Source: an uncultured Ignavibacteriaceae bacterium
Lineage (GTDB): Bacteria > Bacteroidota > Ignavibacteria > Ch128b
Direction of reading: 5' to 3'
DNA length: 64,000 nucleotides
Assembly (NCBI GenBank): GCA_964527925.1
Contig: CAZGQO010000001.1
Span: 324,808 to 388,807, forward strand
Shown here: positions 13,011-30,109 of the stretch, piece by piece
Layout of the letters: the number at the start of each line of letters is the position of its first letter
Numbering within the stretch: position 1 is the first letter of the stretch
Translations under genes and position numbers: made by a program
The notes under the pieces: generated by a model
Seen by the model: only the letters and a program-made list of their open reading frames with translations
What the model was told of the DNA's origin: nothing
Database searches by the model: none

Positions 13011-13047
13011 AAAAAAACTCCCTACACTGAAGAATCAGCATAGGGAG
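13011..13047 (-). terminator. Rho-independent terminator downstream of ftsZ
   Basis: On the minus strand: CUCCCUAUGCUGA-uucu-UCAGUGUAGGGAG stem-loop followed by UUUUUUUAUAUUUUUUU. Begins about 30 nt after the ftsZ stop. Confidence 0.6.
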
Positions 13048-13080
13048 CGATATGTTTAAGGGAATGTTAAGGGGGGAAAC

Positions 13081-14412
13081 TCAGTCCATTAGCTTTCTCA
13101 AAAATTTAGAGGCATCTTCTTCGTCATCGTCTTTTGATTTACTCTTTCGAATATTTTTGAGAAAGTTTTCTTCTTCTGAATTTTTTAAATCTGAATTAAA
13201 GTTTAATTGCCCGCCTGATTTTTCTTTTAATCTGATGTGAGTTGGTATTTCATACTCATTAATTCTATCTGGATCATAAGTTACAAATTCAAGATCGAAA
13301 TTAAGAGTTTCATTAACGGTTGTAGTTGGAAGTACAGGTGGTAATTCTTCAGTTAGAAGTTTTAATTCAGTTCCATCATCACGAGTTTTATTCAGTCGGG
13401 TAATCTTATTATAACCTGTTGCAATGATTGTAACCATCACTTCATCCTGTAGTGAATCATCTTTAACAAGTCCGAACTTTTTGAATGCATTTGGATTAAC
13501 CATATCAGAAATCTTTTTCATCGCTTCCTGAACTTCTGCAAATGACATCGAATCAGAACCAGTGAAGTTGACAAGTACACTGTGGCAGCTTCTTAAATCC
13601 ATTTCATCAAGTAGTGGAGAACTAACAGCTTTATTGACTGCTTCAACAACTTTATTCTGTCCGCTTGCACGACCAATTCCCATTAATGCTTCACCGCTAT
13701 CACGCAGAACAGATTTGACATCGGCAAAATCGACATTAACCTTTCCATTTTTCAGAATTACATCACTAATTCCTTTGACTGCATTGAAGAGAACTTCATT
13801 AGGGACATCGTAAGCATCAAAAGCAGAGACTTTAGAAGTATCAATAACAAGGCTAATGTTATCATTTGGAATTGTTATCAAGCAGTCGCATACTTCTTTT
13901 AGTTCATGAATACCTTTTTCAGCAGTTTTAATTTTTTGTTCACCTTCGTACTTGAAAGGTTTAGTAACAACGGCAACGACAAGCGCACCTGTTGATTTGG
14001 CAATTCCACAAACAACTGGAGAAGCACCTGTACCTGTTCCACCACCAAGTCCAGTTGCAACAAAAACCATTTCAGCACCTTCAAGTGCTTGAAGAATTTT
14101 ATCTTTATCAAGCTCAGCTGATTTCTTACCAATTTCTACATTGCCTCCACTTCCTAAACCTTTAGTTATAGCAGCACCAATTTGAATTTTGTTGGGAGAG
14201 ATTGAACTAAGAAGATTTTGAGCATCAGTATTGACCGCAATGAATTCAACGCCGCTCAATCCTCGGGAAATCATATTGTTGATTGCATTGCAGCCTCCAT
14301 TGCCAACACCAATTACTTTAATCTTAGCAATCGGTTTTTCTTCGGGGGCTATGAAGATGGCGTATCTTCTTTGAGTTTGAGTTGTCGAGTGGTCAAGACG
14401 ATTTTCGAACAT
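13081..14412 (-). CDS. ftsZ: Cell division GTPase FtsZ
   Basis: Tubulin signature GGGTGTGASPVV and GVGNGGCNAINNM. Start refined to MFENRL at 14412 because a perfect SD (AAATGGAGGAATTATG) precedes it; the track ORF has a 16-aa N-terminal extension. Confidence 0.95.
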   Translation of the reverse strand: MFENRLDHSTTQTQRRYAIFIAPEEKPIAKIKVIGVGNGGCNAINNMISRGLSGVEFIAVNTDAQNLLSSISPNKIQIGAAITKGLGSGGNVEIGKKSAELDKDKILQALEGAEMVFVATGLGGGTGTGASPVVCGIAKSTGALVVAVVTKPFKYEGEQKIKTAEKGIHELKEVCDCLITIPNDNISLVIDTSKVSAFDAYDVPNEVLFNAVKGISDVILKNGKVNVDFADVKSVLRDSGEALMGIGRASGQNKVVEAVNKAVSSPLLDEMDLRSCHSVLVNFTGSDSMSFAEVQEAMKKISDMVNPNAFKKFGLVKDDSLQDEVMVTIIATGYNKITRLNKTRDDGTELKLLTEELPPVLPTTTVNETLNFDLEFVTYDPDRINEYEIPTHIRLKEKSGGQLNFNSDLKNSEEENFLKNIRKSKSKDDDEEDASKFLRKLMD

Positions 14413-14437
14413 AATTCCTCCATTTATGTTTTTGTGA

Positions 14438-15670
14438 TTAAAATTCTTTGAAAAATCCACTTATTTTCTCCATGATTTTTTTAAATGAGAATCCTGACTT
14501 TTTGATTTTCTCTTTTTCGATTTCGTAACTTTCAAAGTCGTTAAATAATAATCCAACAGCAGTTGCATAAACAGGATTTTCTACTTTTTTAGAGAGCCCA
14601 CTTCCCAGTTCATAAGGAATACCAAGTCTTGCTGGACGATCGAAAACTTCCTGAGCTAATTCAACACAACCTCTCAATAATGCACCTCCACCAGTTAAAA
14701 CTATTCCTGCATTAATTTGATCTTTCAGATTTTCATTTTTTAATTCATTTTTTATTAACATGAAAAGCTCTTTCATTCTTAGATGAATAATTTCCGTCAG
14801 CACACTGATTGAAACTTTTGTTGCGGGTCTAACTGGACTGACCTGAATATAGACTTCACGATCTTCAACGATAACTCTGGGAGTTGCATAGCCAAATTCA
14901 ATTTTCAATTTTTCGCATTGATCTGTAATTAATCTAAATGCTGCACGTATATCATTCGTAACCTGATTGCCAGCAATACCGATTACAAGCGTATGTCTGA
15001 TTGATCCATTGACATAAACAGCCAGGTCAGTTGTCCCGCCACCAATATCAATCATTGCAACACCGAGTTCTTTTTCATCTTTATCAAGAACAGCATTTGC
15101 TGATGCAAGAGGTTGTAAAATCATCTTATTAATTTTTAATCCTGCTTTCTCGACTGCAAGTTTTAGATTATCTGTTGCAGCCTTTTGGGCAAGAACAATA
15201 TGATGATAAGCTTCAAGTTTTTGAGCCACAACACCAACTGGATTTCTCGTTTCGATTTCGTTATCTATTATATATTTCTCTGGTAAGATGTGAAGAATAA
15301 AATAGTCTGATGGTATTCGAGTCATTCGAACATCATTGAGCAAACGTTCAACATCTGATTCATTGATGATAAAATCAGGATTGTTAATCGTAACAAAATT
15401 TCTGTACCGCATTGAATTAATGAAGATACCAGCTACTCCAACATTTACAGAAGAAATTTTTATTCCCGCCTGATTTTCAGCGATTGCGACAGCTTTTTTA
15501 ATTGATTCAGCCGTTTTCAAAATATTTGCTACGGTACCTCTTGTCATTCCTTCTGATGGAGCAGTTCCTATTCCAAGTATATTTAGCTTGGAATCCGATT
15601 TTCGCTCTGCAATTATTGCACAGGTCTTTGTTGTTCCAATATCCAGACTTGCAATAATATTTTTCTTCAT
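14438..15670 (-). CDS. ftsA: Cell division protein FtsA (actin-like ATPase)
   Basis: 410 aa. DIGTTKT, DIGGGTTD and GGGALL phosphate and adenosine motifs. Confidence 0.9.
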   Translation of the reverse strand: MKKNIIASLDIGTTKTCAIIAERKSDSKLNILGIGTAPSEGMTRGTVANILKTAESIKKAVAIAENQAGIKISSVNVGVAGIFINSMRYRNFVTINNPDFIINESDVERLLNDVRMTRIPSDYFILHILPEKYIIDNEIETRNPVGVVAQKLEAYHHIVLAQKAATDNLKLAVEKAGLKINKMILQPLASANAVLDKDEKELGVAMIDIGGGTTDLAVYVNGSIRHTLVIGIAGNQVTNDIRAAFRLITDQCEKLKIEFGYATPRVIVEDREVYIQVSPVRPATKVSISVLTEIIHLRMKELFMLIKNELKNENLKDQINAGIVLTGGGALLRGCVELAQEVFDRPARLGIPYELGSGLSKKVENPVYATAVGLLFNDFESYEIEKEKIKKSGFSFKKIMEKISGFFKEF

Positions 15671-16413
15671 TAGCTATTTTTTGAATTTGTTTTGATAACA
15701 ATTTGATCTTCAAAACGCAAATCGATGTAATCGTAATTCGTATCTGAATTTTTCAGAACCACATTCCTCCAGAATTCTGAGAAATAAAGTGCTTTAAACT
15801 TATCTAAAGATTTTCCAATTAATATTTTTCCTTTTGGTTTGGTTAAGAATAAAACAAGGTCAGAATTTGTATCGATATTCAATTCTGATGTAACTTCAAA
15901 CAGTGCATCATCAATCTTATCTATATTTAAGAAAGCATTGAATGCATTCTTAATTACGGGATTCTCACTCATCTTCGATCCATTAGCTAACTTAAAGTTA
16001 TTGACAGTTAGAATTGGTAAATCAAAAACTCTCAGTCGTTTGTCATCAGGTAAAATTTTACCGTCTTTTGAAATAATGAATGATCCTTGCTTAGTAATCA
16101 TCATAATAAATGGTTCTATTTCAGTAATAAACACTTGAAATGTATGGAGATCAACAAATCTTCCTTCTGCGTTTTTAACATATGGGATTTTTTCGATTCT
16201 ATCGATGATTGTTTTTGCTGGAATTTCTTTTAAATCTTCGCTGTTTTTTATTGAAATAAAATCATATATCATTTCGTCAGGGATGATTTGATTATTTGTA
16301 ATAATAATTTTTTGCACTTGATATTCGGGCTCAAATTTTTTTGCAAGAATTCCCAGATAAGAAATAAATGCAATAAATAGAACAAAGATTATGTAAATAC
16401 TGTATCTCTTCAT
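15670..16413 (-). CDS. ftsQ: Cell division protein FtsQ/DivIB (POTRA domain)
   Basis: 247 aa with a single N-terminal TM helix and a periplasmic POTRA-like region. Position between murB and ftsA. Confidence 0.7.
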   Translation of the reverse strand: MKRYSIYIIFVLFIAFISYLGILAKKFEPEYQVQKIIITNNQIIPDEMIYDFISIKNSEDLKEIPAKTIIDRIEKIPYVKNAEGRFVDLHTFQVFITEIEPFIMMITKQGSFIISKDGKILPDDKRLRVFDLPILTVNNFKLANGSKMSENPVIKNAFNAFLNIDKIDDALFEVTSELNIDTNSDLVLFLTKPKGKILIGKSLDKFKALYFSEFWRNVVLKNSDTNYDYIDLRFEDQIVIKTNSKNS

Positions 16414-17324
16414 TTTACAGTTTCTTTATTCTTGTTAAAGCCAATCAATTTAATTTCGGGTTCAAGCATCACACCAAATTTTTCAGAAACTTTTTTTTGG
16501 ATAACTTTCATCAATTCAACTACATCCTGTGCTTTAGAATTATTAAAATTGACAATAAAATTTGCATGCTTCTCAGATACTTTTGCTCCGCCAACCGTTA
16601 ATCCTTTCAATCCGGCTGCTTCTATTAATCGAGCAGCATAATCTCCAGCAGGATTCTTGAAAATACTGCCAGCATTTGGTAATTCAACTGGCTGAGATTG
16701 ATTTCTTTTAATCAAAAGCTCTTTTCGTCTTTTTTTAGCTTCTTCACTATTTCCGACTGGTAATTCAAATTTTGCTGAGATGATTATAGTTTTTTCAAGA
16801 TTTGATCTTCTATAAGCAAAACCACATTCTTCTTTCTTAAGATTTAATATTTTACCTTCTTTGATAACCTCAACAGACTTAATGTGATCAGATATTTCAC
16901 CTCCATAGGCACCTGCATTCATCAAGATTGCACCACCAAGAGTTCCTGGAATTCCAGCTAGGTTTTCAACTCCCACCAAAGAATGTTCAAGACAAACATC
17001 AACAAATTTGGACAAACGAATACCTGCTTCAGCATAAACTTCATTACCCTTCAATTCAATTTTATTGAAACCGTATTCGAGATTAATTGCAGCGCCTCTA
17101 ATTCCTTCATCACTTATCAAAACATTACTGCCATTTCCAATTACGATATAAGGATATTTAATTTCATCCAGATAATTAATCAGATTTAGTAAGTCAGATT
17201 TATCTTTTGGTTCGAGATAATAATCAGCCGGACCACCAATTTTGAATGTAGTGAATCGGGCCAGTGGTTCGCTTATTGAAATATGTCCTTTGAAAAATTC
17301 TCTTACTTTTTCTACTGAAAACAT
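16410..17324 (-). CDS. murB: UDP-N-acetylenolpyruvoylglucosamine reductase
   Basis: 304 aa. FAD-binding TTFKIGGPADY..GNGSNVL and C-terminal MurB domain. Confidence 0.85.
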   Translation of the reverse strand: MFSVEKVREFFKGHISISEPLARFTTFKIGGPADYYLEPKDKSDLLNLINYLDEIKYPYIVIGNGSNVLISDEGIRGAAINLEYGFNKIELKGNEVYAEAGIRLSKFVDVCLEHSLVGVENLAGIPGTLGGAILMNAGAYGGEISDHIKSVEVIKEGKILNLKKEECGFAYRRSNLEKTIIISAKFELPVGNSEEAKKRRKELLIKRNQSQPVELPNAGSIFKNPAGDYAARLIEAAGLKGLTVGGAKVSEKHANFIVNFNNSKAQDVVELMKVIQKKVSEKFGVMLEPEIKLIGFNKNKETVK

Positions 17325-17326
17325 TT

Positions 17327-18706
17327 TTACTTTTTATCTTTTAATTTTTTGATAAACTCTTCACCATATTTCCAGATATCGCCGGCTCCCATAGTAACGA
17401 CAATATCACTAGGTTGAACAATTTTTAACAAAGTATCTGGAATATCTTTTTTATCAGGTACATAAAGAACATTTTTATGACCGAATTTTTCAGCCGCATC
17501 AGTGATTAATTGACCTGTTATGCCTTGAATAGGAACTTCTCTGGCTGGATATATATCAGTGCAAATAAAAACATCTGAATCTAAAAATGATTTAGCAAAG
17601 TCATTATAGAAATCTCTTGTTCTTGTATAAAGATGCGGCTGGAAAACCGCAATTATTCTTCTGTCCCAGCCAGTTCGAATTGCAGATAAAGTTGCCGAGA
17701 CTTCCGTCGGATGATGTGCATAATCATCCACAACCATTATTCCGTTAACTTCTGCTTTAATTTCAAATCGTCTATAAACACCACTGAACTTTTTCAATGC
17801 AGACTTGATGACTTCAAAATCTACACCGAGTTCACGAGCAATTGTTAAAGCCACAAGAGAATTCTTTACATTATGAATCCCAGGAACATTCAATTCAACT
17901 TCTCCAAGTAGTTGACCAAAATATTTTACTTTGAATTTTGAAGTAGTTTGATGAAAAGAAACATCATAAGCACGTACATCAGCCTGTGCACTTAATCCAT
18001 AGGTAATCACTTTCCTGTTAATTCCAGGCAAAATTTCTCGTAAACCTTCTTCATCGAGACATAAAACTACAAAACCATAAAAAGGTACTTTGTTCGCAAA
18101 TTCAACAAAAGCTGATTTGATATCTTCAAGATCTTTGTAAATATCAAGATGTTCTTTCTCAAGAGTTGTTATTGCTGCAATAACTGGGGTTAACTGTAAA
18201 AAACTTCTATCAAACTCATCTGCTTCTACAATTATAAAATCACCATGACCTAATCGAGCATTGGTTCCACCAAGACCACTTAATTTTCCGCCAACAATAA
18301 CCGTTGGATCAAAACCAGCCTCAAGCATTACAAGTCCAACCATAGATGTTGTGGTAGTTTTTCCATGAGTTCCTGCAATACCAATTCCATATTTCAATCT
18401 CATCAGCTCTGCAAGCATCTCTGATCTTTTGATCACAGGAATTTTTCTTCTGAGTGCTTCCTGAATTTCCACATTATCCATAGTAACTGCCGAAGAATAA
18501 ACTACCACGTCAGCGTCTTTAATATTTTCTTCACTGTGACCTTCATAGATTTCTGCGCCAAGAGATTGAAGTCTATCTGTTATTTCACTAAGACTTCTGT
18601 CAGAACCAGAGACTTTGAAATTCATTGCAAGGAGAACCTCAGAAATACCGCTCATTCCAATTCCCCCAATACCAACCATGTGAACTTTATTAAAATTTTT
18701 AAGCAT
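17327..18706 (-). CDS. murC: UDP-N-acetylmuramate--L-alanine ligase
   Basis: HMVGIGGIGMSGISEVL, GTHGKTTTTSM. Start refined to MLKNFNKVH (18706); the track ORF extends 17 codons upstream. Confidence 0.9.
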   Translation of the reverse strand: MLKNFNKVHMVGIGGIGMSGISEVLLAMNFKVSGSDRSLSEITDRLQSLGAEIYEGHSEENIKDADVVVYSSAVTMDNVEIQEALRRKIPVIKRSEMLAELMRLKYGIGIAGTHGKTTTTSMVGLVMLEAGFDPTVIVGGKLSGLGGTNARLGHGDFIIVEADEFDRSFLQLTPVIAAITTLEKEHLDIYKDLEDIKSAFVEFANKVPFYGFVVLCLDEEGLREILPGINRKVITYGLSAQADVRAYDVSFHQTTSKFKVKYFGQLLGEVELNVPGIHNVKNSLVALTIARELGVDFEVIKSALKKFSGVYRRFEIKAEVNGIMVVDDYAHHPTEVSATLSAIRTGWDRRIIAVFQPHLYTRTRDFYNDFAKSFLDSDVFICTDIYPAREVPIQGITGQLITDAAEKFGHKNVLYVPDKKDIPDTLLKIVQPSDIVVTMGAGDIWKYGEEFIKKLKDKK

Positions 18707-19181
18707 GTTTCTCCTTCTCTTTCTCTTCAAGTTTACTTTTGATATATATAATATCATTCATCAATTCATCTTCGTTTTCATAATCAAATGGACGAATAAC
18801 CAGATTTTTTCTTTCACCTTGTTTAAGTTTAATTACAACTATTCTCAAGAAAGATGAGAGATAAAATCCTCTTTCACGTTTTATTTTTATTTCATTGATA
18901 TTTTCAAAAGGTATGGAAATAAATTTAAATTTAGATTCAACAATTAGTTTGTCATTCTCTATGATAATTTCTTTTTTCAGAATTATATAATAGATAGTAT
19001 TAACAAGAACATAAGCTATCAAAACAAGGAATAAGTGGAGAATTGAATCTTTTAAAATTCTTTCCATATCAAATCCAATAAATTGCAATCGCAATAAAAC
19101 ATAGACAATCAACGCAACCAGATAGACTGTTAAAGATTGATAATATAAAGTCATATTATACTTAAATGATTTTCTTTCCAT
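18699..19181 (-). CDS. Small membrane protein inserted in the dcw cluster (two TM helices plus a C-terminal PH-like, YdbS/bPH_2-like domain; function unknown)
   Basis: The ORF fills the murG-murC gap exactly (2-nt gap to the murC ATG). TM1 SLTVYLVALIVYVLL, TM2 ILHLFLVLIAYVLVNTIYYIIL, then a beta-rich domain ending in a Lys/Glu-rich tail. The track start is TTG; ATG at 19181 (MERKS) is preferred. Confidence 0.5.
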   Translation of the reverse strand: MERKSFKYNMTLYYQSLTVYLVALIVYVLLRLQFIGFDMERILKDSILHLFLVLIAYVLVNTIYYIILKKEIIIENDKLIVESKFKFISIPFENINEIKIKRERGFYLSSFLRIVVIKLKQGERKNLVIRPFDYENEDELMNDIIYIKSKLEEKEKEKHA

Positions 19182-20280
19182 TTTCCAGAACGATTTTTCT
19201 AATTCTTTCAACAATCACTTTTGAAGCATCAGCTTGAAAAAGTGATTTTGCATTTTCTGATAAACTCTTCAAACGTTCTTCATTCACTAATAAACTCACA
19301 ATCTTATCATAGAGCACATCAGCCAATTCTTCATCGAACAAAATTTCAGCAGCATCTTTTTCGAATAAAGTTCTTGCGTTATAGTATTGATGATTTTCTG
19401 TTACATTTGGTGATGGAATTAAGACAGCTGGTATTCCCTGCGAAATTATTTCAGAAATTGTGGATGCACCTGATCTCGAAACAAGTAAATCACACATTGA
19501 ATATGCATAATCCATTCTTTCAATAAATGGAAGAATCACTACTCTTTCACTTCTGGGCAAATCTTTATATTGATGATAATGAGTTTTTCCTGTTTGCCAG
19601 ATTAATTGATAGTTTTGTGCAAGTTTCAGGTAAATCTGAAAGATTTTTTCGTTCAGGGACTGAGCACCAAGGCTGCCACCAAGTACCAGAATTGTTTTGA
19701 CTTCAGGTGATAGACCAAAATATTTTGCTGCTGCCTCTCTATTTCTTTCATATAAATTTTTACGAACTGGAGTACCAGTAACCACAAAATTGTAATCTTT
19801 CTTGAAATACTCTTTTGTCTTTTCAAATGATAGATAGATTTCACTTGAAAACGGAACTAAAAATTTTGTTGCAAATCCAGGAAATGAATTCGATTCAACT
19901 AAAAATATTTTTGAGCCAAGTAATTTTGCTGCCAAAAGCGGAGGCACAGAAATATAACTGCCCGTTCCTATTGAAATTTTTGGTTTGAATGGAATTAATT
20001 TAATTATGGATTGTATGAATGCTATAAAAAGACTTACAAGAAAAACTATCAATTTGAAACTTAGTTTTCTTGGCAATCCAATTACTGATGTACCTGCGTA
20101 TTTATAACCTAACATTGGCAATATTTCGGATTCCATTCTTTTTTTGGTTCCCATGAAAAAAATTTCAGCGTCATTAAATTGTTCTTTAATTTCTTCTGCA
20201 ATAGCAATCGCCGGGAAAAGATGTCCACCCGTTCCACCTGCGCTAATCAATATTTTTAATCTTTCATTTTTTGACATCAT
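19162..20280 (-). CDS. murG: UDP-GlcNAc:undecaprenyl-PP-MurNAc-pentapeptide GlcNAc transferase
   Basis: 372 aa. ILISAGGTGGHLFPAIAIAEE N-terminal G-loop and C-terminal GT28 domain. Confidence 0.9.
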   Translation of the reverse strand: MMSKNERLKILISAGGTGGHLFPAIAIAEEIKEQFNDAEIFFMGTKKRMESEILPMLGYKYAGTSVIGLPRKLSFKLIVFLVSLFIAFIQSIIKLIPFKPKISIGTGSYISVPPLLAAKLLGSKIFLVESNSFPGFATKFLVPFSSEIYLSFEKTKEYFKKDYNFVVTGTPVRKNLYERNREAAAKYFGLSPEVKTILVLGGSLGAQSLNEKIFQIYLKLAQNYQLIWQTGKTHYHQYKDLPRSERVVILPFIERMDYAYSMCDLLVSRSGASTISEIISQGIPAVLIPSPNVTENHQYYNARTLFEKDAAEILFDEELADVLYDKIVSLLVNEERLKSLSENAKSLFQADASKVIVERIRKIVLENGKKII

Positions 20281-21434
20281 ATCCCATTTCTAAAGTTTAT
20301 TGAAATATCAGTTGATCTTTCAGGAACAGGTTTTATAGTCGAAGCAATATTAATCAACACACCTAAACCGATTGAATGCATCACCAAAGCAGAACCACCA
20401 TAGCTTAATAAAGGCAGTGGTAAACCAGTTGTTGGTAAAATTCCCACAACAACAAGTGTATTAGCAAACAGATAAAATCCAATTGTAATCACAACTCCTG
20501 CCGATATAACTTTACCGAAAATATCTTCAGCCCGCTGCATAACGATATAACCAATAATCATAATTACCAGATATAGAAAAAGAATAAAAATTGAGCCAAC
20601 AAAACCAAGCTCTTCACCAATTATCGAAAAGATAAAATCTCCATATGCTTCTGGAATAAACAGCTCACGGAAATTACTATTGCCAAAACCTACTCCAATT
20701 GTTCCTCCTGATCCTATTGCATAAATAGCATAACGTACCTGAGGGTCTGGATCAACTAGAGAAGGATTGAACAATCTCTTAACATAATTTCCAATTCGTT
20801 GGAGTCGATACTCTGCTGAAAACATATAAATTAAAATAATTGGAGCCGATGCAAGGACTGTGAAAAATAAATGTTTAAAACTTGCTCCACCAAGAAACAC
20901 CAGACTCAAACCAATTAAAATGATCATCATGCCCTGTGAAAAATTTGGCTGTAAAAAAACCAGAAGTGCAATAATTGAAATCCAGACAATAAATGGTAAA
21001 TAACCGTTTTTAAATTCCTGCACTCTCTCACCTTTTCTCTCAATCAAATTAGCGAAATGAAAAATCATCGCATAAAGTGCCAAGAATGATGTTTGAATTT
21101 CAATAAAACCAAAATCAAAGGAACGAACTGCTCCTTTCTTCATCGTACCAAAAAATAAAGTCAGAGTAAGTAAAAGTATCGAAATTAAAACCCCTAAGTG
21201 AGTTAAATTTTTATAAACTTTATATGGAATCTTACTGAAGATAACTAACACTATAGATGCAAATAAAACCTTTACTGCATGATTGGAAGCAAGTTGGTGC
21301 GGATTTTTCCCTGGAGTTAGAACTTCAGAGAAGGAAGCACTGGCAGAATACACAATTGCGATGCTTAATATCATCAAAGCTAAAACAGTGATGAATAAAA
21401 TTATTTTTAGATTTTCTATCTTAATCAGCTTCAT
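20277..21434 (-). CDS. ftsW: SEDS-family peptidoglycan polymerase FtsW
   Basis: 385 aa with 10 TM helices and conserved SEDS motifs (RSFDFGFIEIQTSF..., LPTTGLPLPLLSYGGSALV). Confidence 0.85.
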   Translation of the reverse strand: MKLIKIENLKIILFITVLALMILSIAIVYSASASFSEVLTPGKNPHQLASNHAVKVLFASIVLVIFSKIPYKVYKNLTHLGVLISILLLTLTLFFGTMKKGAVRSFDFGFIEIQTSFLALYAMIFHFANLIERKGERVQEFKNGYLPFIVWISIIALLVFLQPNFSQGMMIILIGLSLVFLGGASFKHLFFTVLASAPIILIYMFSAEYRLQRIGNYVKRLFNPSLVDPDPQVRYAIYAIGSGGTIGVGFGNSNFRELFIPEAYGDFIFSIIGEELGFVGSIFILFLYLVIMIIGYIVMQRAEDIFGKVISAGVVITIGFYLFANTLVVVGILPTTGLPLPLLSYGGSALVMHSIGLGVLINIASTIKPVPERSTDISINFRNGI

Positions 21435-22810
21435 AAACTATTTACCAATTCTTTGAAAGTTCTTCCTCTGTGTTCATAATCTTTAAACATATCAAAACTT
21501 TTACATGCTGGTGAAAACATTACAATATCACCTTTGCAGGCTATATCGTAAGATTTTTTAACTACTTCTTCTAATGATTCACAAACTATCACTTCAACAA
21601 CCTTATCGAAGAAGTTTTTAATTTTTTCTTTTGTTTCACCAAATGCAAGGATCACTCTTGCTTTTTCCTTCACGAGTTCTAAAATTTCTGTGTAGTCATT
21701 TCCTTCGCCTTCTTCTCGACCACCCAAAATTAGAATCAAAGGAGAATCATAGCTTTTCAATGCGTAATAAGTGGATCTTACATTTGTAGCTTTTGAATCA
21801 TTGATAAATAAAACTCCATTCAACTCACGAACTATCTCAAGTCGATGTTCAACTCCTTTGAAAGTCTCAACTCCCTCTCTAATTTTATCAAGTGAACATC
21901 CAACAAATCTTGCTGCAAGAGCGGAAGCCATTGAATTATAATAATTGTGAATTCCTTTCAGAATCATCTCTCTTGTATTAATAAATGGAAAAAATTCTGA
22001 TTGATTGCTTCCATTCTTGATACTATTCCTCAAATAAATTATGTCGTCTTTGTAGAACGCATCAGCATTATCAAAACCAATTATTGAGAAAGTTTCTTTT
22101 TTAGATTTTAGAGATGGGATGTTATTAGTAATTGAAGAATCATCAAGATTATAAATAAAGAGATCTTCCTTCTGTAAATTTTTTGTGATTCTGAACTTTG
22201 ATTCGATATATTTTTGAAAGCTGTTCTCATATCGATATAAATGATCGGGAGTAATATTAAGTATAATTGCAACATCTGGATGAAAACTATCAATCAAATC
22301 AAGTTGATAGCTGCTGACTTCAAGAACCGAAATTGAATCATCCGAAGTTTTATCAGCAAAACCCGAGAAGGCATCACCAATATTTCCACCGATAAGAGTC
22401 TTAAAACCTGCATTTTTCAAAATGTAATGAGTTAATGCAGTTGTTGTTGTTTTACCATTTGTTCCAGTAATTGCAATCATTTTTCCTTTATTAAACCAGC
22501 TTGCAAATTCGATTTCCGAATAAACTGGAATTCTCTTGCTAAATGCATTCTGTAAAACTTCAGATTTAATGGGAACGCCAGGACTCGTTACAATAAAATC
22601 ACAATCATAAACTTTCGATGAATGAGCACCTAATTCAATTTCAACGCCAAGACTCTTTAATTCATCTAGTTTATTTTTTCCGATTTCTTTTTTTCCATTA
22701 TCGCTGATAAAAACTTTTGCACCTTTTTTAGCAGCAAGAATAGCTGCAGGAATTCCACTTCTTTCTGCACCAAGAACAGTTATTCTTTTATTTTTGAGTT
22801 CTGTAATCAT
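21431..22810 (-). CDS. murD: UDP-N-acetylmuramoylalanine--D-glutamate ligase
   Basis: 459 aa. ITGTNGKTTTT P-loop; Mur ligase middle and C domains. Confidence 0.85.
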   Translation of the reverse strand: MITELKNKRITVLGAERSGIPAAILAAKKGAKVFISDNGKKEIGKNKLDELKSLGVEIELGAHSSKVYDCDFIVTSPGVPIKSEVLQNAFSKRIPVYSEIEFASWFNKGKMIAITGTNGKTTTTALTHYILKNAGFKTLIGGNIGDAFSGFADKTSDDSISVLEVSSYQLDLIDSFHPDVAIILNITPDHLYRYENSFQKYIESKFRITKNLQKEDLFIYNLDDSSITNNIPSLKSKKETFSIIGFDNADAFYKDDIIYLRNSIKNGSNQSEFFPFINTREMILKGIHNYYNSMASALAARFVGCSLDKIREGVETFKGVEHRLEIVRELNGVLFINDSKATNVRSTYYALKSYDSPLILILGGREEGEGNDYTEILELVKEKARVILAFGETKEKIKNFFDKVVEVIVCESLEEVVKKSYDIACKGDIVMFSPACKSFDMFKDYEHRGRTFKELVNSL

Positions 22811-23919
22811 TATCTAATCTTAAATGTTGTTAGACTTACAATTGCCAGGATTATTGCGATGATGTAAAAACGAGTTACAATTTTTGGTTCTGGCCAGCCC
22901 ATCAATTCAAAATGATGATGCAACGGAGCCATCTTAAAAACTCGTTTCCCTTCACCATATTTTCTTTTTGTGTATTTGAAGTATCCTCTTTGAATTATTA
23001 CTGAAATAGTTTCAGCGAAGAAAATTCCACCAAGGATCGGCAAAAGCAATTCTTTTTTTACAAGAACAGCAAGAGTCCCAAGTGCACCGCCAAGAGCAAG
23101 CGAGCCTGTATCGCCCATAAAAACCTGAGCTGGGTAGGCATTAAACCACAAAAATCCAAGCGTTGCACCAGCAATCGCAGCACAGAAAATTGTTAATTCA
23201 CCTGCACCAGCCAAATAAATGATATTCAAATAATCACTATAAACCACATTTCCAGTAACATAGCTAAAAATTGCAAGCGTCAGCATCGAAATTGCAACAG
23301 TTCCTGATGCTAAGCCATCAAGTCCATCGGTTAGATTAACAGCGTTTGCAGTTCCCATAATTATAAAGATTATAAATGGAATGTACAGACTGCCGAAATC
23401 GAAATTTAAATTCTTAAAGAATGGTAAAGTTGTTTCTGTCCTGACTAATTCAAACTCTGGTGCATAATAGACAGAAAGTCCAACTATTAAACCAATAATG
23501 AACTGAAGAATTAGTTTATATCTTTCGATTAAACCTTTTCTGTATTTCTTTACAACTTTCAAATAATCATCAAGCAAACCGACTGCAAAGAGCCACAAAG
23601 TTGAGGCAAGAATTATCCAGATGAATGTACTCATTATATCAGCCCAGAGAATCACAGGTATTACCATTGAAAGCACAATAATAATTCCACCCATTGTAGG
23701 AGTACCTTCTTTGCTCCAGTGAGTTTTTGGAGCTTCAACTTTTTTAGATTCACCAATCTGATTTTTCTTTAACCAGGCGATGATTTTCGGACCGAAATAA
23801 AAAGCAATAATCAAAGAAGTGACAGCAGCAGCTGCTGAACGTGTAGTGATGTATCTGAAAGCTCCAAGACCCGGGATATCATAATTTCGTTTTAAGAATT
23901 CAAATAAATAGTAAAGCAT
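22810..23919 (-). CDS. mraY: Phospho-N-acetylmuramoyl-pentapeptide transferase
   Basis: 369 aa. NAVNLTDGLDGLA and HHHFELMGW motifs. Confidence 0.9.
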   Translation of the reverse strand: MLYYLFEFLKRNYDIPGLGAFRYITTRSAAAAVTSLIIAFYFGPKIIAWLKKNQIGESKKVEAPKTHWSKEGTPTMGGIIIVLSMVIPVILWADIMSTFIWIILASTLWLFAVGLLDDYLKVVKKYRKGLIERYKLILQFIIGLIVGLSVYYAPEFELVRTETTLPFFKNLNFDFGSLYIPFIIFIIMGTANAVNLTDGLDGLASGTVAISMLTLAIFSYVTGNVVYSDYLNIIYLAGAGELTIFCAAIAGATLGFLWFNAYPAQVFMGDTGSLALGGALGTLAVLVKKELLLPILGGIFFAETISVIIQRGYFKYTKRKYGEGKRVFKMAPLHHHFELMGWPEPKIVTRFYIIAIILAIVSLTTFKIR

Positions 23920-23921
23920 GT

Positions 23922-25292
23922 TTATCCTTTTACTAATTCTATTATTTCTTCCATCTTCATTTTTCTTGAACCTTTAAGAAGAATTAAAAGGCGACTGTAA
24001 TTCATCTTTAATAATTCTTCTGTAATCTTTGATTTTGAATCAAAATGCTGAGCATTGAGTTTTAATTTATTTGCTTCATCAAAAGTGTATCTCGTTAGTT
24101 CACCAAATAAATAAATATTCTGAATACCTGATTCTTTCAAGTAATGAGCAAGATCACGATGAAATTTTTCTGAGTGTTCACCAAGCTCAAGCATATCACC
24201 AAGTATTGCAATTTTATTTTCAAATCCATTCATCTGTGAAAGAGTAGTGATGGCAAATCTCATAGAATCTGGATTTGCATTGTACGCATCATTAATAAAT
24301 GTGAATTTATTTATCGTTATGACCTGCATCCTCTTATCATAAGCTTGAAAAGATTCTAACGCATTTTTAATTTGTTTAAGGCTTATCCCGAACTTTATTC
24401 CAACTGATGCAGCTGCTAAAGCATTCTGTGCTGAATGAATGCCATAGGTTGGAAGATCTATTACAACTGATTTATTTTTATAAGTAATTTTCAAGACTGG
24501 CTGAGCTAATGAATTCAGTGAAAGGATCTTTCCTCTAACATCAGATCTTGAATTGAAACCAAAGGATAATTTTCTTTTAATATTTTTTGCTTGATCTTTG
24601 ATGAGTGTATCGTCTGGATTAACAAAGACAAATCCATTTTTCTTTTTTAGATATCTAAACAATTCGGCTTTTTCTTTAGCTATACCTTCACGACTTCCAA
24701 AGAATTCGATATGTGCTGTTCCAATCATAGTTATCAATCCAAAATCAGGATCAGCTATTTCACAAAGCGACCTCATTTCACCGAAGTGATTTATTCCCAT
24801 TTCAAGTACAGCTATCCTATGATTCTTTTTAAGTCTGAATAAATTGAGTGGAAGTCCAATATTATTGTTTAGATTTCCTTCCGTTTTCAACACATTGTAT
24901 TTTGATTCTAAAACTTTTGCAATCATTTCTTTCGTAGTAGTTTTACCATTTGAACCTGTTAGGCCAATGACTTTTACATCAAACTTATTTCGATAAATTC
25001 TTGCTAACTGACCAAGTGCTTGAATGGTATCATCAACCAGAATCATTGGATAATTTTTGTCAAAGAATCTTTGCATTTGCTTTTTTTGAATTACAAATGC
25101 AGATGCACCTTTCGAGATTACATCGTCAACAAAATCATGTCCATCAAAATTTTCTCCTTTGATAGCGAAGTATAGTTCACCTTGATTAATTTTTCTTGAA
25201 TCAATTGATACACCAGTTATCCTACCAATTAAGTTGGAGTTAACTATCTCTACATTTGTAATTTGTCTTATGTCTCTAAGTGTAATATTCAT
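23922..25292 (-). CDS. murF: UDP-MurNAc-tripeptide--D-alanyl-D-alanine ligase
   Basis: 456 aa. GLTGSNGKTTTKEM P-loop. Follows murE. Confidence 0.85.
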   Translation of the reverse strand: MNITLRDIRQITNVEIVNSNLIGRITGVSIDSRKINQGELYFAIKGENFDGHDFVDDVISKGASAFVIQKKQMQRFFDKNYPMILVDDTIQALGQLARIYRNKFDVKVIGLTGSNGKTTTKEMIAKVLESKYNVLKTEGNLNNNIGLPLNLFRLKKNHRIAVLEMGINHFGEMRSLCEIADPDFGLITMIGTAHIEFFGSREGIAKEKAELFRYLKKKNGFVFVNPDDTLIKDQAKNIKRKLSFGFNSRSDVRGKILSLNSLAQPVLKITYKNKSVVIDLPTYGIHSAQNALAAASVGIKFGISLKQIKNALESFQAYDKRMQVITINKFTFINDAYNANPDSMRFAITTLSQMNGFENKIAILGDMLELGEHSEKFHRDLAHYLKESGIQNIYLFGELTRYTFDEANKLKLNAQHFDSKSKITEELLKMNYSRLLILLKGSRKMKMEEIIELVKG

Positions 25293-26800
25293 TTCCCAAA
25301 TCTCTCTTCAAGAATTTTTTTTGCAACTTCACGATCATCAAAAGGGATTCTCTTGTTTTTCACAATTTGATAAGGCTCGTGTCCTTTTCCGGTAATCAAC
25401 ACAACATCACCGTCATTTGCGAGTGAAATTGCTTTTCGAATTGCATCTTCTCTATCCTCAATTACATAAAATTCTTTGTTTCTATTCATTCCACTCAAAA
25501 TATCATTGTTTATTTGGAATAGCTCTTCATTTCTTGGATTGTCTGCAGTTATAATTGCAACATCACTCAATTCTTCAACAACCTTTCCCATTTTTGGTCT
25601 TTTTGTTCTATCTCTATTTCCACCTGCACCAAAAACTGTAATTATTTTATTGGAAGAATTATTTCTGCGAAGTATTTCTCGAATTGTGTTTAATACATTT
25701 TGAAGTGCATCATGAGTATGTGCATAATCTACGATTACTTTTACCGGGTAATTTCCAATAACTTCAAATCTTCCCGGAACTTTTATTAAGTTTTTTATTG
25801 ATTCTCTAATAGAATTTATATCAACCCCCAGCTCAATGCAGGTTGCAATTGCAGCTGCTAAATTATAGACATTAAAAGTACCGGTAACATTTGCTGTGAA
25901 CTCTTCTATCTTTTCTCTAATCTTCATTTGAAACTTTATTTCATCAAAAGAAATCTGATAATTTATAATTTGAAAATCACTTTCTGGACTCATTCCATAA
26001 AATTTCACTTTTGATTTCGTATCAACAACAATGCTCTTACCATATTCATTATCAATGTTTACAATCGCGATTGAATACTTGCCAAGTGAGTCAAACAATT
26101 TTTTCTTAGCGGCAAAGTAATTATCCATTGTAAGATGAAAATCCAGATGGTCTTGTGTAAGATTCGTAAATACACCGGCTTTGAAATTTACACCATAAAC
26201 TCTATCAAGCTGAAGTGAGTGAGAAGAAACTTCAGTCACGCAATATTCACAACCTTTTTCAATCATTAAACTTAATAATTGATTGAATTCCAGAGATTCT
26301 GGGGTTGTTTTTTCTGAAGGTAAAATATCATCACCAATGTAATTATTAACTGTTCCAATCAAACCTGTTTTATAACCAGCAGATTCAAGAATCGATTTTA
26401 TAAAATATGTAGTTGAAGTTTTTCCATTAGTTCCTGTAATGCCAATTACTTTTATTTTGTCAGAAGGATTTTTAAAGAAATTTTTGGATAATAAAGCTAG
26501 TGCTTTACGAGAATCCTTCACTAAAATTTTTGTCACATTTTGATGAATTAAATAATCATTCGAAACCTTAGAATCATCTTCAAGAACAATTGCAGTTGAA
26601 CCTTTTGCAATTGCTTCCATAATAAAATTGTGTCCGTCAAAATTAAATCCTTTAATTGCAACAAAAATTGAATTCTTCACAACTTTTCGCGAATCATAAG
26701 CGATAGAAACAATATCTTTTCGCTCAACCTCTCCAGCTAATTGAACAATTGAAAGATTAGAAATTAAATTTTCTAACTTCACTATATATCTCTTTGACAT
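25289..26800 (-). CDS. murE: UDP-MurNAc-L-Ala-D-Glu--2,6-diaminopimelate (or lysine) ligase
   Basis: 503 aa. GITGTNGKTSTTYF; DNPR motif near the C-terminus (ITADNPRNEE) is consistent with meso-DAP-adding enzymes. Confidence 0.9.
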   Translation of the reverse strand: MSKRYIVKLENLISNLSIVQLAGEVERKDIVSIAYDSRKVVKNSIFVAIKGFNFDGHNFIMEAIAKGSTAIVLEDDSKVSNDYLIHQNVTKILVKDSRKALALLSKNFFKNPSDKIKVIGITGTNGKTSTTYFIKSILESAGYKTGLIGTVNNYIGDDILPSEKTTPESLEFNQLLSLMIEKGCEYCVTEVSSHSLQLDRVYGVNFKAGVFTNLTQDHLDFHLTMDNYFAAKKKLFDSLGKYSIAIVNIDNEYGKSIVVDTKSKVKFYGMSPESDFQIINYQISFDEIKFQMKIREKIEEFTANVTGTFNVYNLAAAIATCIELGVDINSIRESIKNLIKVPGRFEVIGNYPVKVIVDYAHTHDALQNVLNTIREILRRNNSSNKIITVFGAGGNRDRTKRPKMGKVVEELSDVAIITADNPRNEELFQINNDILSGMNRNKEFYVIEDREDAIRKAISLANDGDVVLITGKGHEPYQIVKNKRIPFDDREVAKKILEERFGK

Positions 26801-28887
26801 TTAATTTTTAATTCTTGACTCGAATTAATGTATTGCCCAGGTGCAATACTCTGATCAACAACATAACCTGTTCCATCCACGCTAAACTTGATTCCACGAG
26901 ATTTTAATTTGGTAGTCGCCTCTCTTAAAGATAAACCTACAAGATTTGGAACAACATTTTTTGAACCATTATTTTGATTTTCGTAGTCTTCGAAAAATAG
27001 AACAACTTTGTTGTTAAAAGGATCGAATATCTGCTTTTGAACAATATCCCCTTTGCCTCGAATTTCAATCCTTATATTAAAACTTTTTGCAGTATGAATT
27101 GCAGAAACTTTTGATTTTCCAGTTAAATCTGGTAGAGATTTGTTATTATCTTTTGAATCGTTACCAGTAAATTTTATATCTTCAATAGCCTTAACTTGAT
27201 TTAATTCATTCTGCCTCTCTGCCCAGATTCTATCCCCAATTTTTTTGAATAATGGTGCAGCAACCTCAGCAGCGTAATATCCGTTTTTGGGTGAATCCAG
27301 TTTGACAAAAATCAAATATTCAGGATTCTCGACCGGGAAAAATCCAACGAAGGATGAGATATAGTCTTTATCAGAATAGCCAACACCTTGAATAAATTTT
27401 TTTGCTGTTCCGGTTTTTCCTCCACAACTGACATTCTCTAATTTTGCTTTTTCCCCAGTGCCTTCAGTGATTACTGATTGCATAATTTCTTTCATCAATC
27501 TGCTTGTGGATTCAGAAATAACTTTCCGTACCACTGTTGGCTTATTTTCAAGAACAACATTGTTATTATTATCAAAGACTTTCTTCACAACAAAAGGCTT
27601 CATCAAATTCCCGCCGTTAATTATTGAAGCATACATTGTAATTAATTGCAAAGGCGTAACTGAAATCGAATATCCATGAGCTACCCACAACATAGCAAGA
27701 TCATTTTTAACGGGCTTTCTCACTATTCCTCGTACTTCTCCTGGAAGATCAATTCCAGTATAACTTCCAAAACCAAAATTGTAGATGCTTTTATAAAAAT
27801 TTTCTTCTCCAATTAACCGCGAAATTTTCGCCATTACTATGTTGCTTGAATAAACAAATGATTCCTTTGGAGTCAAAAAGGTATATTTATGGTCATCTCG
27901 AATCACCTTACCATTTGAAACTTTATAGATTCCATTTTCCGCATTCATGACGGAATTAATATTAACTTTATTCAATTCGATAGCTGTTGCAAGTGTAACA
28001 GCCTTAAAAGTCGAACCTGGATCATAAACCTCAGCAATTGATCTGTTTTTTCTCTCTTGATCTGAATATTCAGAATAACGGGCGGGATTAAATGTTGGAA
28101 TATTTGCAAGTGCTAAAATTTCTCCAGTGTTTGGATTCATAACAATTCCAACAGCACTCTTTGCTTGCCATTGTTCTACAGCTTTTACCAACTCTTCTTC
28201 AACAATCGATTGAATTCCAAAATCTATTGTAAGTTGAACATTATATCCATCAACTGCATCATTACCCTTATTTTGTATTCTTCCTCTTTTTCGTCCTGTT
28301 GCATCCTTTCTGTAGTAGATTAATCCTTCTTTGCCTCTTAAATAATTATCATAGTATTTTTCAACTCCATCCAGACCCACTGCTGAATCAAACTTTACAT
28401 ATCCAATCAAATGTGCTTCAAGTCCTTCTTTCGTATAAATTCTTGTTTGATATTCTTCAAATCCAAAACAACCCAATTTCGCCCGTTGCAATTTTTCGTT
28501 TAATTTATAATAAACTTCACTTGAAAGATCTTGTTGAAGATAGACAATTTTATTATCACTAGTGTTTACTTTCTTAAGGTATTCTTCACTCGAAGTATTC
28601 AAAAGCTTTGCAAGAGAGTCAAGTATTTTAGCATAATCAATCTTATCAACCATTGACTTATCAAAATATAACTTATATGATTTGACAGTTGAAGCAAGGA
28701 GAATATTGTTTCTATCGTATATCTCTCCCCTTAATGGTTTTTTGATTTCAGCTTTTTGAGTTAACTGTATTGATTTTTCAAGATAAAAGTTGTGATTTTT
28801 AAACTGTAAATAAATCAGTCTTGATACTAAAACACCAAAGGCAAATAAAAATAGAATTACAAAAAGTAGAAATCTTCTCGTTATCAA
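26782..28887 (-). CDS. ftsI: Penicillin-binding protein (FtsI/PBP3 class B transpeptidase) with C-terminal PASTA domain
   Basis: 701 aa. SxxK (STFK), SSN and KTGT transpeptidase motifs. C-terminal ~70 aa (VVPNLVGLSLREATTKLKSRGIKFSVDGTGYVVDQSIAPGQ) matches the PASTA fold. Confidence 0.85.
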   Translation of the reverse strand: MITRRFLLFVILFLFAFGVLVSRLIYLQFKNHNFYLEKSIQLTQKAEIKKPLRGEIYDRNNILLASTVKSYKLYFDKSMVDKIDYAKILDSLAKLLNTSSEEYLKKVNTSDNKIVYLQQDLSSEVYYKLNEKLQRAKLGCFGFEEYQTRIYTKEGLEAHLIGYVKFDSAVGLDGVEKYYDNYLRGKEGLIYYRKDATGRKRGRIQNKGNDAVDGYNVQLTIDFGIQSIVEEELVKAVEQWQAKSAVGIVMNPNTGEILALANIPTFNPARYSEYSDQERKNRSIAEVYDPGSTFKAVTLATAIELNKVNINSVMNAENGIYKVSNGKVIRDDHKYTFLTPKESFVYSSNIVMAKISRLIGEENFYKSIYNFGFGSYTGIDLPGEVRGIVRKPVKNDLAMLWVAHGYSISVTPLQLITMYASIINGGNLMKPFVVKKVFDNNNNVVLENKPTVVRKVISESTSRLMKEIMQSVITEGTGEKAKLENVSCGGKTGTAKKFIQGVGYSDKDYISSFVGFFPVENPEYLIFVKLDSPKNGYYAAEVAAPLFKKIGDRIWAERQNELNQVKAIEDIKFTGNDSKDNNKSLPDLTGKSKVSAIHTAKSFNIRIEIRGKGDIVQKQIFDPFNNKVVLFFEDYENQNNGSKNVVPNLVGLSLREATTKLKSRGIKFSVDGTGYVVDQSIAPGQYINSSQELKIKCQRDI

Positions 28888-29183
28888 TTTCCCTCCAGTT
28901 GACTCAATTTTTCTCGTGGAATTTTGAGTAAAATTGGTGCTTCAACAGGATTAATCATACCTAACTGAGTGATTGCAATTTTTTCAATTCTATCTTTTGC
29001 AATTAAAGACTCATATTCAGATCTAAGCTTTTTATTAGCATTAATTAAAATTTGAATCTCTTCAGTCCTTTGATCGATTTTCTTAATTAAATCTCTGACT
29101 ATTACTGTGTTAGCAACAAAAAGTGTAATTAAAACAATAAAAATAACTATCAATGATATAGTAAATCCTGGATTCTTTATCAT
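28884..29183 (-). CDS. ftsL: Cell division protein FtsL-like (single TM plus coiled coil)
   Basis: 99 aa. TM ISLIVIFIVLITLFVANTVIV followed by a heptad-rich region. Position between rsmH and ftsI. Confidence 0.55.
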   Translation of the reverse strand: MIKNPGFTISLIVIFIVLITLFVANTVIVRDLIKKIDQRTEEIQILINANKKLRSEYESLIAKDRIEKIAITQLGMINPVEAPILLKIPREKLSQLEGN

Positions 29184-30109
29184 AATACTTCCACTGATCT
29201 TAATTTTGCACTTCTAGAACGTGGATTATTTTTGATTTCCGTTTCATCCGTTCTGATAACTTTTTTTGTTAATTTTTTCAGCCGTAATTTTTTGCCGCAG
29301 ATACATCGACCAAGTTCCGGTGGACAATTACACTCCTGAGAATTTTTATTAAAAAATTCTTTTACAATTCTATCCTCTAATGAATGATAAGAGATAATTA
29401 CTATTCTGCCGCCAGATTTAATTAACTCAATTGCATCTTCAAGAAAAGTTTTCAAGTTTACTAACTCATCATTTACATATATCCTGAAAGCTTGAAAAAC
29501 TCTGGAGAGTGTATCATTTAATTTATGTCTTGGCGTAACTCTTGAAATGATTTCTACAATTTCTCTCGTAGTTCGAACAGGATTTTTCTTAACTGATTTT
29601 TCCAATTCTCTCGCAATCTTGTGTGCAAATTTTTCTTCACCATAAGTTGAAATGATTTTGTAAAGTTCTCTTGCTTCGGAATTGTCGATTATTTCATAAG
29701 CAGGAACACCAGTGCTTTTATCAAATCTCAAATCAAAATCTCCTTCAAACCGATATGAAAATCCTTCATCAGGGGTATCGATTTGATAGGAAGAAATTCC
29801 CAGGTCAAGAACTGACCCATCGATTTTTTGAAAACCAAGTGAGGTTAAAATATCTTTTATGTTCTTAAAATTTTCTTTCACAATTATAATCCTGTTTTCA
29901 TCAGCAAATTTTTTTTTGCAATAATTTATTGCTGCATCACTTAAATCAGTTGAAATCAGTTTCCCTGATGGACTTAATTTTTTCAGGATTGCTTCAGAAT
30001 AACCACCACCACCGAGTGTTCCGTCAAAATAAATTCCATCAGGATTTGTAAGTAAATATTCAATCGCAGTTTCTAAAAGAACAGGCTTGTGAAACTCACT
30101 TATTTCCAT
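29180..30109 (-). CDS. rsmH: 16S rRNA (cytosine1402-N4)-methyltransferase
   Basis: 309 aa. HKPVLL, DGTLGGGGYS (SAM site), LGISSYQID motifs. Confidence 0.9.
   Translation of the reverse strand: MEISEFHKPVLLETAIEYLLTNPDGIYFDGTLGGGGYSEAILKKLSPSGKLISTDLSDAAINYCKKKFADENRIIIVKENFKNIKDILTSLGFQKIDGSVLDLGISSYQIDTPDEGFSYRFEGDFDLRFDKSTGVPAYEIIDNSEARELYKIISTYGEEKFAHKIARELEKSVKKNPVRTTREIVEIISRVTPRHKLNDTLSRVFQAFRIYVNDELVNLKTFLEDAIELIKSGGRIVIISYHSLEDRIVKEFFNKNSQECNCPPELGRCICGKKLRLKKLTKKVIRTDETEIKNNPRSRSAKLRSVEVL

Follow-up and report, generated by a model that had tools for sequence, protein, structure and literature searches.

A membrane protein with a predicted split PH-like domain is conserved between murG and murC in Ignavibacteria-type bacteria

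Introduction

YdbS from Bacillus subtilis is a protein of 159 amino acids with two transmembrane (TM) helices and one PHb2 domain (PMC8657885). A mark of proteins of the YdbS type is an adjacent gene for a YdbT-like partner, which has six TM helices and three pleckstrin homology (PH) domains. Another kind of membrane protein with a PH domain is EROS (CYBC1), the human chaperone of NOX2: its PH domain is parted by two helices, H1 and H2, and has six strands and a C-terminal helix, and its TM helices and strands alike take hold of the client (PMC11161758). A relative of EROS is Ycf4 (PMC5379978), the photosystem I assembly factor of plants and cyanobacteria. Here we describe a gene, which we call X, that encodes an unnamed membrane protein of 160 amino acids and lies between murG and murC in the cluster of genes for division and the cell wall (dcw) of an uncultured Ignavibacteriaceae bacterium. 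The stretch of DNA that we analyzed (the window) is 64,000 nucleotides long and comes from GenBank assembly GCA_964527925.1 (contig CAZGQO010000001.1, positions 324,808 to 388,807); all positions below are positions within the window unless a locus is named.

Few gene arrangements in bacteria are as conserved as the dcw cluster, and almost every gene in it is essential and has been well characterized. How MurG, which is a peripheral membrane protein, and the soluble Mur ligases are organized at the membrane is still debated. In Actinobacteria, MurG and MurC can be fused, and MurG has been proposed to be a scaffold for the Mur ligases; the fusions, together with data on interactions, suggest an association of the two enzymes, although the steps that they catalyze are not consecutive (PMC10214165, PMC6420597). 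Physical association has thus already been inferred for the products of the genes that meet at this junction. [quoted passage not shown] We searched the literature and found no account of a gene at the murG-murC junction in Ignavibacteria, nor of a PH-domain membrane protein that is tied to MurG.

A conserved gene at the murG-murC junction

Gene X is on the minus strand at 18699-19181, from an ATG start codon to a TAA stop codon, and its product begins with MERKSFKYNMTLYYQS and ends with EKEKHA. The longest form of the open reading frame (ORF) starts at a TTG codon at 19214 and has 171 codons. An earlier reading of the DNA alone (the sequence-only reading) had described a 160-residue protein at 18699-19214; the ORF is there, but its strand had to be corrected to minus, and a protein of 160 amino acids begins at the ATG at 19181. 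This start is supported because every close homolog begins at the equivalent position and because four residues that are invariant or nearly so, F6-K7-Y8-N9, are encoded upstream of the next in-frame ATG.

The flanking genes are identified by their Pfam domains. Directly upstream of X is murG (19162-20280, minus strand, 372 amino acids), which matches Glyco_transf_28 (E = 5.9e-30) and Glyco_tran_28_C (E = 1.4e-34). Directly downstream is murC (17327-18706, minus strand), which encodes 459 amino acids from the ATG at 18706 and matches Mur_ligase, Mur_ligase_M, and Mur_ligase_C. The end of murG overlaps the beginning of X by 20 nucleotides (19162-19181), or by 17 nucleotides if the murG stop codon (TAA at 19164-19162) is not counted, which agrees with the overlap of about 17 nucleotides reported from the sequence alone. 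The same reading had left 2 nucleotides between X and the start codon of murC. This was an error: the two genes overlap by 8 nucleotides (18699-18706, ATGCTTAA), with the ATG of murC (18706-18704) upstream of the TAA of X (18701-18699).

X is co-oriented with its neighbors, its start and stop codons overlap theirs, and a scan of the window for promoters and terminators found no convincing terminator between murG, X, and murC, all of which is expected for a member of the dcw operon. X is probably translated together with its neighbors. Also, a Shine-Dalgarno-like hexamer, AAGGAG, can be read at 18711-18716 (minus strand), 4 nucleotides upstream of the ATG of murC; it falls within the codons for the acidic tail of X and probably serves as the Shine-Dalgarno sequence of murC. 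This tail (EEKEKEKHA), whose codons hold the hexamer, is variable among homologs, and its sequence may be partly shaped by the initiation of murC translation rather than by the function of the protein.

Homologs of X are easily found. A word-indexed search identified 15 of them, with 159-163 amino acids and 38-100% identity, and those with a named source are from metagenome-assembled genomes (MAGs) of Ignavibacteria. We also searched 1.84 billion representative sequences (clustered at 50% identity) exhaustively with a profile and found relatives in 164 clusters at E <= 1e-3 and in 121 at E <= 1e-10. Nearly all of these representatives have 150-170 amino acids, and they match from end to end. 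Overall, the homologs have 154-163 amino acids, and identity falls to about 30%. Among close pairs that align without gaps, the proportion of nonsynonymous differences (pN) was 0.20-0.31, while the proportion of synonymous differences (pS) was saturated at 0.64-0.83. (We left out pairs with one locus, L104, whose equal length masked insertions and deletions, so that codons were out of register.) X is a genuine protein-coding gene under purifying selection.

The position of X is conserved as well. We compared the window with other loci, which are numbered L001 and so on; the homologous proteins carry P-numbers. The order murG-X-murC was present in all 11 loci that we reached via protein homologs or via a collection of genomes (L001-L011). 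A scan with an alignment of the X family yielded 80 more loci from metagenomes, with 30-56% identity to the query; where these had enough flanking sequence, murG was always upstream (76 of 76) and murC was always downstream (77 of 77). Because both sets were found by searching with X itself, we also drew an unbiased set: five relatives with 45-64% identity to MurG and long contigs, which were chosen regardless of X. All five encode an X homolog of 159-160 amino acids between murG and murC (blastp, E = 1e-18 to 1e-60). None of the MurG relatives that we sampled, all of which are at least 43% identical, has an empty murG-murC junction. The synteny that the sequence-only reading had proposed as a check does hold among relatives.

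The tight spacing that had been taken to imply translational coupling is also conserved. From murG to X, the distance is -4 nucleotides (ATGA) in 53 of 76 loci and between -14 and +1 nucleotides in the rest; from X to murC, it is -8, -1, or 0 nucleotides in 74 of 77 loci. Across the loci that keep X in this position, MurG has diverged to 42-66% identity. Pairwise identities of X are strongly correlated with those of MurG (r = 0.91), MurC (r = 0.85), and FtsW (r = 0.95; n = 12 loci for FtsW), and X evolves somewhat faster than MurG and at about the same rate as FtsW. As the identities of X track those of its neighbors, X has been inherited vertically with the cluster, and it is a vertically inherited member of the division and cell-wall operon of Ignavibacteria-type bacteria. 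We considered whether this mirror-tree correlation might indicate direct co-evolution of X with MurG, and we dropped the idea, as the correlation between MurG and MurC is similar (r = 0.86).

The cluster around X is less constant. In the window, murB (16410-17324) lies between murC and ftsQ, and this is also so in closer relatives (such as L006-L009, L022, L100, and L101). In the more distant loci with X (L001, L003-L005, L011, L023-L099, and L102-L104), murC is followed directly by ftsQ. Since murB is patchy within the clade, the cluster must have gained or lost murB while X stayed.

Predicted structure of X

Hydropathy analysis indicates that X has two TM helices (at residues 12-35 or so and 46-68 or so) and a positively charged N terminus. 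This fits a topology in which both termini are in the cytoplasm and roughly 10 residues form a loop on the outside. We built two AlphaFold models, one from 15 sequences, which had a predicted local distance difference test score (pLDDT) of 84.4, and one from 44 diverse sequences, which had a pLDDT of 91.4 and a predicted template modeling score of 0.78. The models agree exactly on the boundaries of the structural elements, except that the second TM helix ends at residue 68 in the first model and at residue 67 in the second. The two TM helices of the sequence-only reading are confirmed by hydropathy and appear as helices in both models.

In the models, the protein begins with a strand, beta1, at residues 4-8 (19158-19172), which includes the F-K-Y-N motif; it is assigned as a strand by DSSP in both models, and the pLDDT of this block is 84-92. 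TM helix 1 (residues 11-35; 19077-19151) follows, then a short helix (residues 39-43), and then TM helix 2 (residues 46-68; 18978-19046), which is preceded by D45-P46 in the short outer loop. The remainder of the protein is a putative cytoplasmic PH-like domain (residues 71-159; 18705-18971) with six strands (71-74, 78-82, 87-91, 95-102, 113-119, and 127-129) and a C-terminal helix (137-159). If beta1 is counted, then X has the seven strands and the capping C-terminal helix of the PH-like superfold. In both models, then, the PH-like domain is split: the TM hairpin comes between beta1 and the other strands. Because a DSSP strand requires hydrogen bonds, residues 4-8 of the modeled protein must pair with the C-terminal sheet, and because the linkers on either side of the hairpin are just 2 residues or so, the modeled PH domain must lie on the surface of the inner leaflet.

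Fold comparison supports the PH-like fold, which the sequence-only reading had offered as a point that could prove it wrong. Using Foldseek, we found that the model of X is similar to the PH domain of Sin1 (E = 5e-3, probability 1.0). EROS (8kei_D) aligns with 128 residues of X, as compared to about 85 residues for structures that contain only a PH domain, so the predicted likeness to EROS spans the whole protein.

Across 202 nonidentical sequences, the conserved residues of X are F6, Y13, Y20, Y27, D45-P46, R84-F85, I95, I98, I117, R123, R125, I129-R130-P131, Y134, and L140. The three tyrosines Y13, Y20, and Y27 are spaced exactly seven residues apart, are kept in 89-96% of the sequences, and form a single aromatic face of TM helix 1. 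Together with D45-P46 at the outer end of TM helix 2, this stripe could be a surface for contacts between helices or with a lipid carrier. The soluble domain is usually basic: across the family, its net charge has a median of +10 and ranges from 0 to +21.

Comparison with known families

We asked if X belongs to a known family. X from the window is below the threshold of every family in Pfam. Among the bacterial PH (bPH) families, bPH_4 matches best (E = 0.053), followed by bPH_5 (E = 0.077); X does not match bPH_2 (PF03703) at all, and it matches no family in NCBIfam at E values up to 10. Matches for 44 members of the X family are weak and scattered across bPH_4, bPH_5, bPH_6, bPH_7, bPH_10, bPH_2, EbsA, YcxB, and DUF6585. 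Just one of the 44 touches bPH_2 (E = 0.0039), and one distant member is slightly above the cutoff for DUF6585, with partial coverage (28.1 bits versus 27.7 bits). The families of Ycf4 and EROS are not among the Pfam matches of the 44 members. We dismissed a match to CTV_P13 (E = 8e-4, below the Pfam cutoff) as an artifact of hydrophobic or low-complexity sequence. When we compared a profile of the 44 sequences to all sequences in PDB, including EROS, the matches to solved structures were at the level of chance (E = 0.22 and 0.49). Thus, among the bacterial membrane proteins with PH domains, X represents a branch that is divergent and uncurated.

The automatic names that JGI gives to homologs of X (P0006, P0008, P0019, and P0169) contradict each other: they include "predicted DNA-binding antitoxin AbrB/MazE fold protein," "tellurite resistance protein TehA-like permease," "amino acid permease," and "cytochrome c biogenesis factor." These names are almost certainly wrong.

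The sequence-only reading had likened the C-terminal domain of X to YdbS and bPH_2. The fold and the YdbS-like architecture stand; the assignment to bPH_2 does not, as X is below the threshold of PF03703. YdbS, and also DdE from Enterococcus faecalis, are nearly the same size as X and share its two N-terminal TM helices, cytoplasmic PH-like domain, and C-terminal helix; the X family also has weak matches across the bPH clan. However, X has a conserved strand before TM helix 1 which, in the models, makes the PH domain split. The genetic context differs as well. YdbS and DdE belong to a sigma-W regulon or a bacteriocin locus, whereas X is in the dcw operon, and instead of a multi-PH partner similar to YdbT or DdF, its neighbors are murG and murC in about 100 loci.

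With EROS and Ycf4, X shares the placement of a TM hairpin within the PH domain after the first strand, although for X this is known only from the predicted models. EROS and Ycf4 are from other organisms and have clients that differ from any putative client of X. The similarity between X and EROS could be convergent, or it could be too old to be detected from sequence.

Distant members of the family

In three loci whose X protein is P0030 (L012-L014), the order murG-X-murC is retained and the part of the cluster upstream is different. In L015 and L016, MurG is just 34% identical to MurG from the window, and murG is apart from ftsW and murC, yet X begins 12 nucleotides after murG. The linkage of X to murG therefore persists in one lineage whose cluster is dispersed.

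Three other distant members have different surroundings. In L017, X (1405-1896) overlaps the end of a gene whose product has an RNase_T exonuclease domain and a GIY-YIG domain, and the contig has 61% GC. In L018, which has 52% GC and is from a MAG that is labeled as Chloroflexota (GCA_050260015.1), X follows a gene for uracil phosphoribosyltransferase. In L019, X follows an array of genes for outer-membrane proteins. Because members of the family occur in high-GC organisms and outside of dcw clusters, the family must be wider than the low-GC clade of Ignavibacteria.

In L015, L018, and L019, the gene directly after X (at a spacing from overlap to 4 nucleotides) encodes another membrane protein, which we call Y (L015:6502-7140, L018:8474-9064, and L019:8468-9034). 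Y has 188-212 amino acids. Its N terminus is signal-like, its middle is variable, and its C-terminal tail (EPV..VA.SALTV.LFFTVRS[NK]), which comprises a TM helix and a basic end, is invariant. This tail resembles a signal for sorting or anchoring. Y does not match any family in Pfam or NCBIfam, and tblastn against the window and all of the loci found no Y in the window or in the murG-X-murC loci.

Upstream of X and Y in L019 (644-7815) are two tandem arrays of paralogous genes that encode proteins of about 205-245 amino acids. One strand carries three genes that are lipoprotein-like, and the other carries six genes for proteins that resemble outer-membrane beta-barrels. One of these six weakly matches TDE1717, which is a family of outer-membrane beta-barrel proteins. 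We considered whether these arrays contain paralogs of Y and rejected this, as they are unrelated beta-barrels and lipoproteins.

The surrounding dcw cluster

The dcw cluster of the window is complete, with 16 genes from mraZ to ftsZ (13081-30572, minus strand), as identified from lists of ORFs and from Pfam. The order is mraZ, rsmH, an ftsL-like gene, ftsI, murE, murF, mraY, murD, ftsW, murG, X, murC, murB, ftsQ, ftsA, and ftsZ. All of these genes are co-oriented, and most of them overlap or abut. X is indeed an extra gene in a cluster that is otherwise intact, as had been suggested.

Directly downstream of ftsZ is a terminator-like hairpin of 14 pairs followed by a run of T (13017-13048, minus strand). 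It is the only strong hairpin of this kind that we found in the cluster and is probably the 3' end of the dcw transcription unit. In the same scan of the window, promoter-like sites were no more common than in shuffled sequence. Neither Rfam (at its gathering thresholds) nor a tRNA scan found any RNA element in the window, so no such element accounts for the region of X.

FtsI, a penicillin-binding protein of 701 amino acids (26782-28887, minus strand), has a PASTA domain at its C terminus (residues 645-695, E = 6.7e-14). The penicillin-binding protein encoded in L018 has a PASTA domain as well. PASTA domains are more typical of PBP2x-type enzymes from Gram-positive bacteria and of Ser/Thr kinases.

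Possible roles of X

The sequence-only reading had suggested that X might be an accessory factor of the divisome or of peptidoglycan synthesis, and the gene context strengthens this suggestion. From the context and the predicted structure, we infer the binding partners of X and a role in lipid II synthesis or division. The most likely role of X, at about even odds, is that of an adaptor or scaffold, anchored in the membrane, for those steps in the synthesis of peptidoglycan precursors that take place at the membrane.

How might such an adaptor work? X would be a small inner-membrane protein in which beta1, a 2-residue linker, and TM helix 1 are followed, after the turn, by TM helix 2, another 2-residue linker, six strands, and the capping helix. 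The PH domain would be clamped flat on the cytoplasmic face of the membrane, where it would dock the peripheral glycosyltransferase MurG and possibly MurC too, which is made from the next, overlapping cistron. For the TM hairpin, the partner would be a polytopic protein encoded in the same operon, MraY or FtsW, against which it would pack. In this, X would be analogous to EROS and Ycf4, which are split-PH proteins that hold on to clients in the membrane. We consider this EROS-like bridging to be a tentative idea, with roughly a quarter of our confidence behind it. The fullest version, in which X is an unrecognized core component of the cell-wall machinery of Ignavibacteria and a counterpart of the EROS/Ycf4 class that couples MraY and/or FtsW to MurG and MurC, is rather doubtful, if still worth entertaining.

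The MurG-MurC fusions concern the same junction, and X lies between these two genes and overlaps both of them, which is consistent with bridging, but X is a separate membrane protein and not a fusion linker. Gp11 offers a precedent for a small membrane protein that acts on MurG; it is a phage-encoded inhibitor with no known kinship to X, whereas X is a chromosomal and vertically inherited member of an operon.

Several observations weigh against a scaffold at MurG. A shared gene neighborhood indicates co-expression, not binding, and the correlation between X and MurG is no higher than their shared phylogeny predicts. The likeness to EROS is structural only, and the sequences give no signal for EROS, Ycf4, or any solved structure. 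In the window, the soluble domain of X has a net charge of only +1. Finally, some distant members are not beside murG (L017, L018, and L019), and the downstream partner of X in L015, L018, and L019 is a different membrane protein, Y. Because of these members, the ancestral function may go beyond tethering MurG: the X family may have a more general membrane role that became fixed at the murG-murC junction in the Ignavibacteria-type clade.

These distant members outside of dcw clusters also fit another explanation, which is that X is a YdbS-like protein for envelope stress, transport, or resistance (one that would oligomerize into a pore or a transporter accessory) that hitchhikes in the dcw cluster and has no role with MurG or MurC. 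X has the same size and layout as YdbS from B. subtilis (PMC8657885), the family has subthreshold matches to several bPH families, and membrane proteins with bPH domains have been tied to the transport of bacteriocins or resistance to them and to sigma-W stress regulons (PMC8657885, PMC2817789). However, it would be surprising for a hitchhiker to keep its position while MurG diverged to 42-66% identity, with overlapping junctions in about 100 loci, and to follow murG even where the cluster is scattered. The genes nearby include neither a YdbT-like partner nor one for a bacteriocin, and X is below the threshold of PF03703. We think that this explanation is unlikely.

[quoted passage not shown] X is encoded with ftsW, ftsI, ftsQ, ftsA, and ftsZ in one operon, its TM hairpin could contact FtsW, and its identities track those of FtsW (r = 0.95, across 12 loci). 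But L015 and L016 keep X at murG even though ftsW, ftsA, and ftsZ are not nearby. Also, since X has almost no periplasmic part beyond the loop of about 10 residues, it cannot act as FtsN, FtsB, or FtsQ do, which still allows for a role on the cytoplasmic face. We view a divisome regulator as somewhat unlikelier still.

A third explanation is that X organizes lipids rather than proteins: a basic PH-like domain would bind anionic phospholipids or the head group of undecaprenyl-pyrophosphate, and the resulting patch of membrane would favor MurG and MraY without any stable complex. In most members the soluble domain is strongly basic, and R84, R123, R125, and R130 are conserved; in the models, the 2-residue linkers would place this domain at the membrane surface. 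Binding of anionic lipids is common among eukaryotic PH domains, and the function of MurG depends on cardiolipin (PMC6381277). On the other hand, the domain is nearly neutral (+1) in the window itself, the predicted TM hairpin takes the place of the loop between beta1 and beta2 (the classical site of lipid binding), and bacterial PH domains are predicted not to use that site (PMC2817789). This seems improbable to us.

Last, although an AT-rich genome (32% GC) yields long ORFs by chance and the database names for homologs of X are absent or contradictory, the idea that X is a spurious open frame between murG and murC has virtually no chance of being correct and, at the level of sequence, is already refuted by conservation: length, start, two TM helices, and fold are kept down to about 30% identity in over 100 loci, pN is well below pS, the structural model is confident (pLDDT of 91), and removing X would leave a noncoding gap of about 460 nucleotides in an operon that has no other gaps.

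Implications

A gene that is present across a clade at the murG-murC junction, in overlapping reading frames, suggests that annotation has missed a component of lipid II synthesis or division that is specific to the lineage, and X is a candidate for the factor that organizes MurG and the Mur ligases at the membrane. What is new is a bacterial PH-domain protein with two TM helices in a conserved and functionally suggestive context, the dcw cluster, and with an EROS-like layout of its predicted split PH domain. X would extend the functional range of the bacterial PH membrane proteins, which so far have been linked mainly to stress responses and the transport of bacteriocins, and if the models are correct, it is a bacterial example of the split-PH architecture that is known from EROS and Ycf4. 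If X does couple its partners in the manner of EROS and Ycf4, then it would be a dedicated membrane anchor or assembly factor for the lipid II synthesis complex, the first to be described, and the scaffold of a TM hairpin within a PH domain would be an ancient design that is common to bacteria, chloroplasts, and animals.

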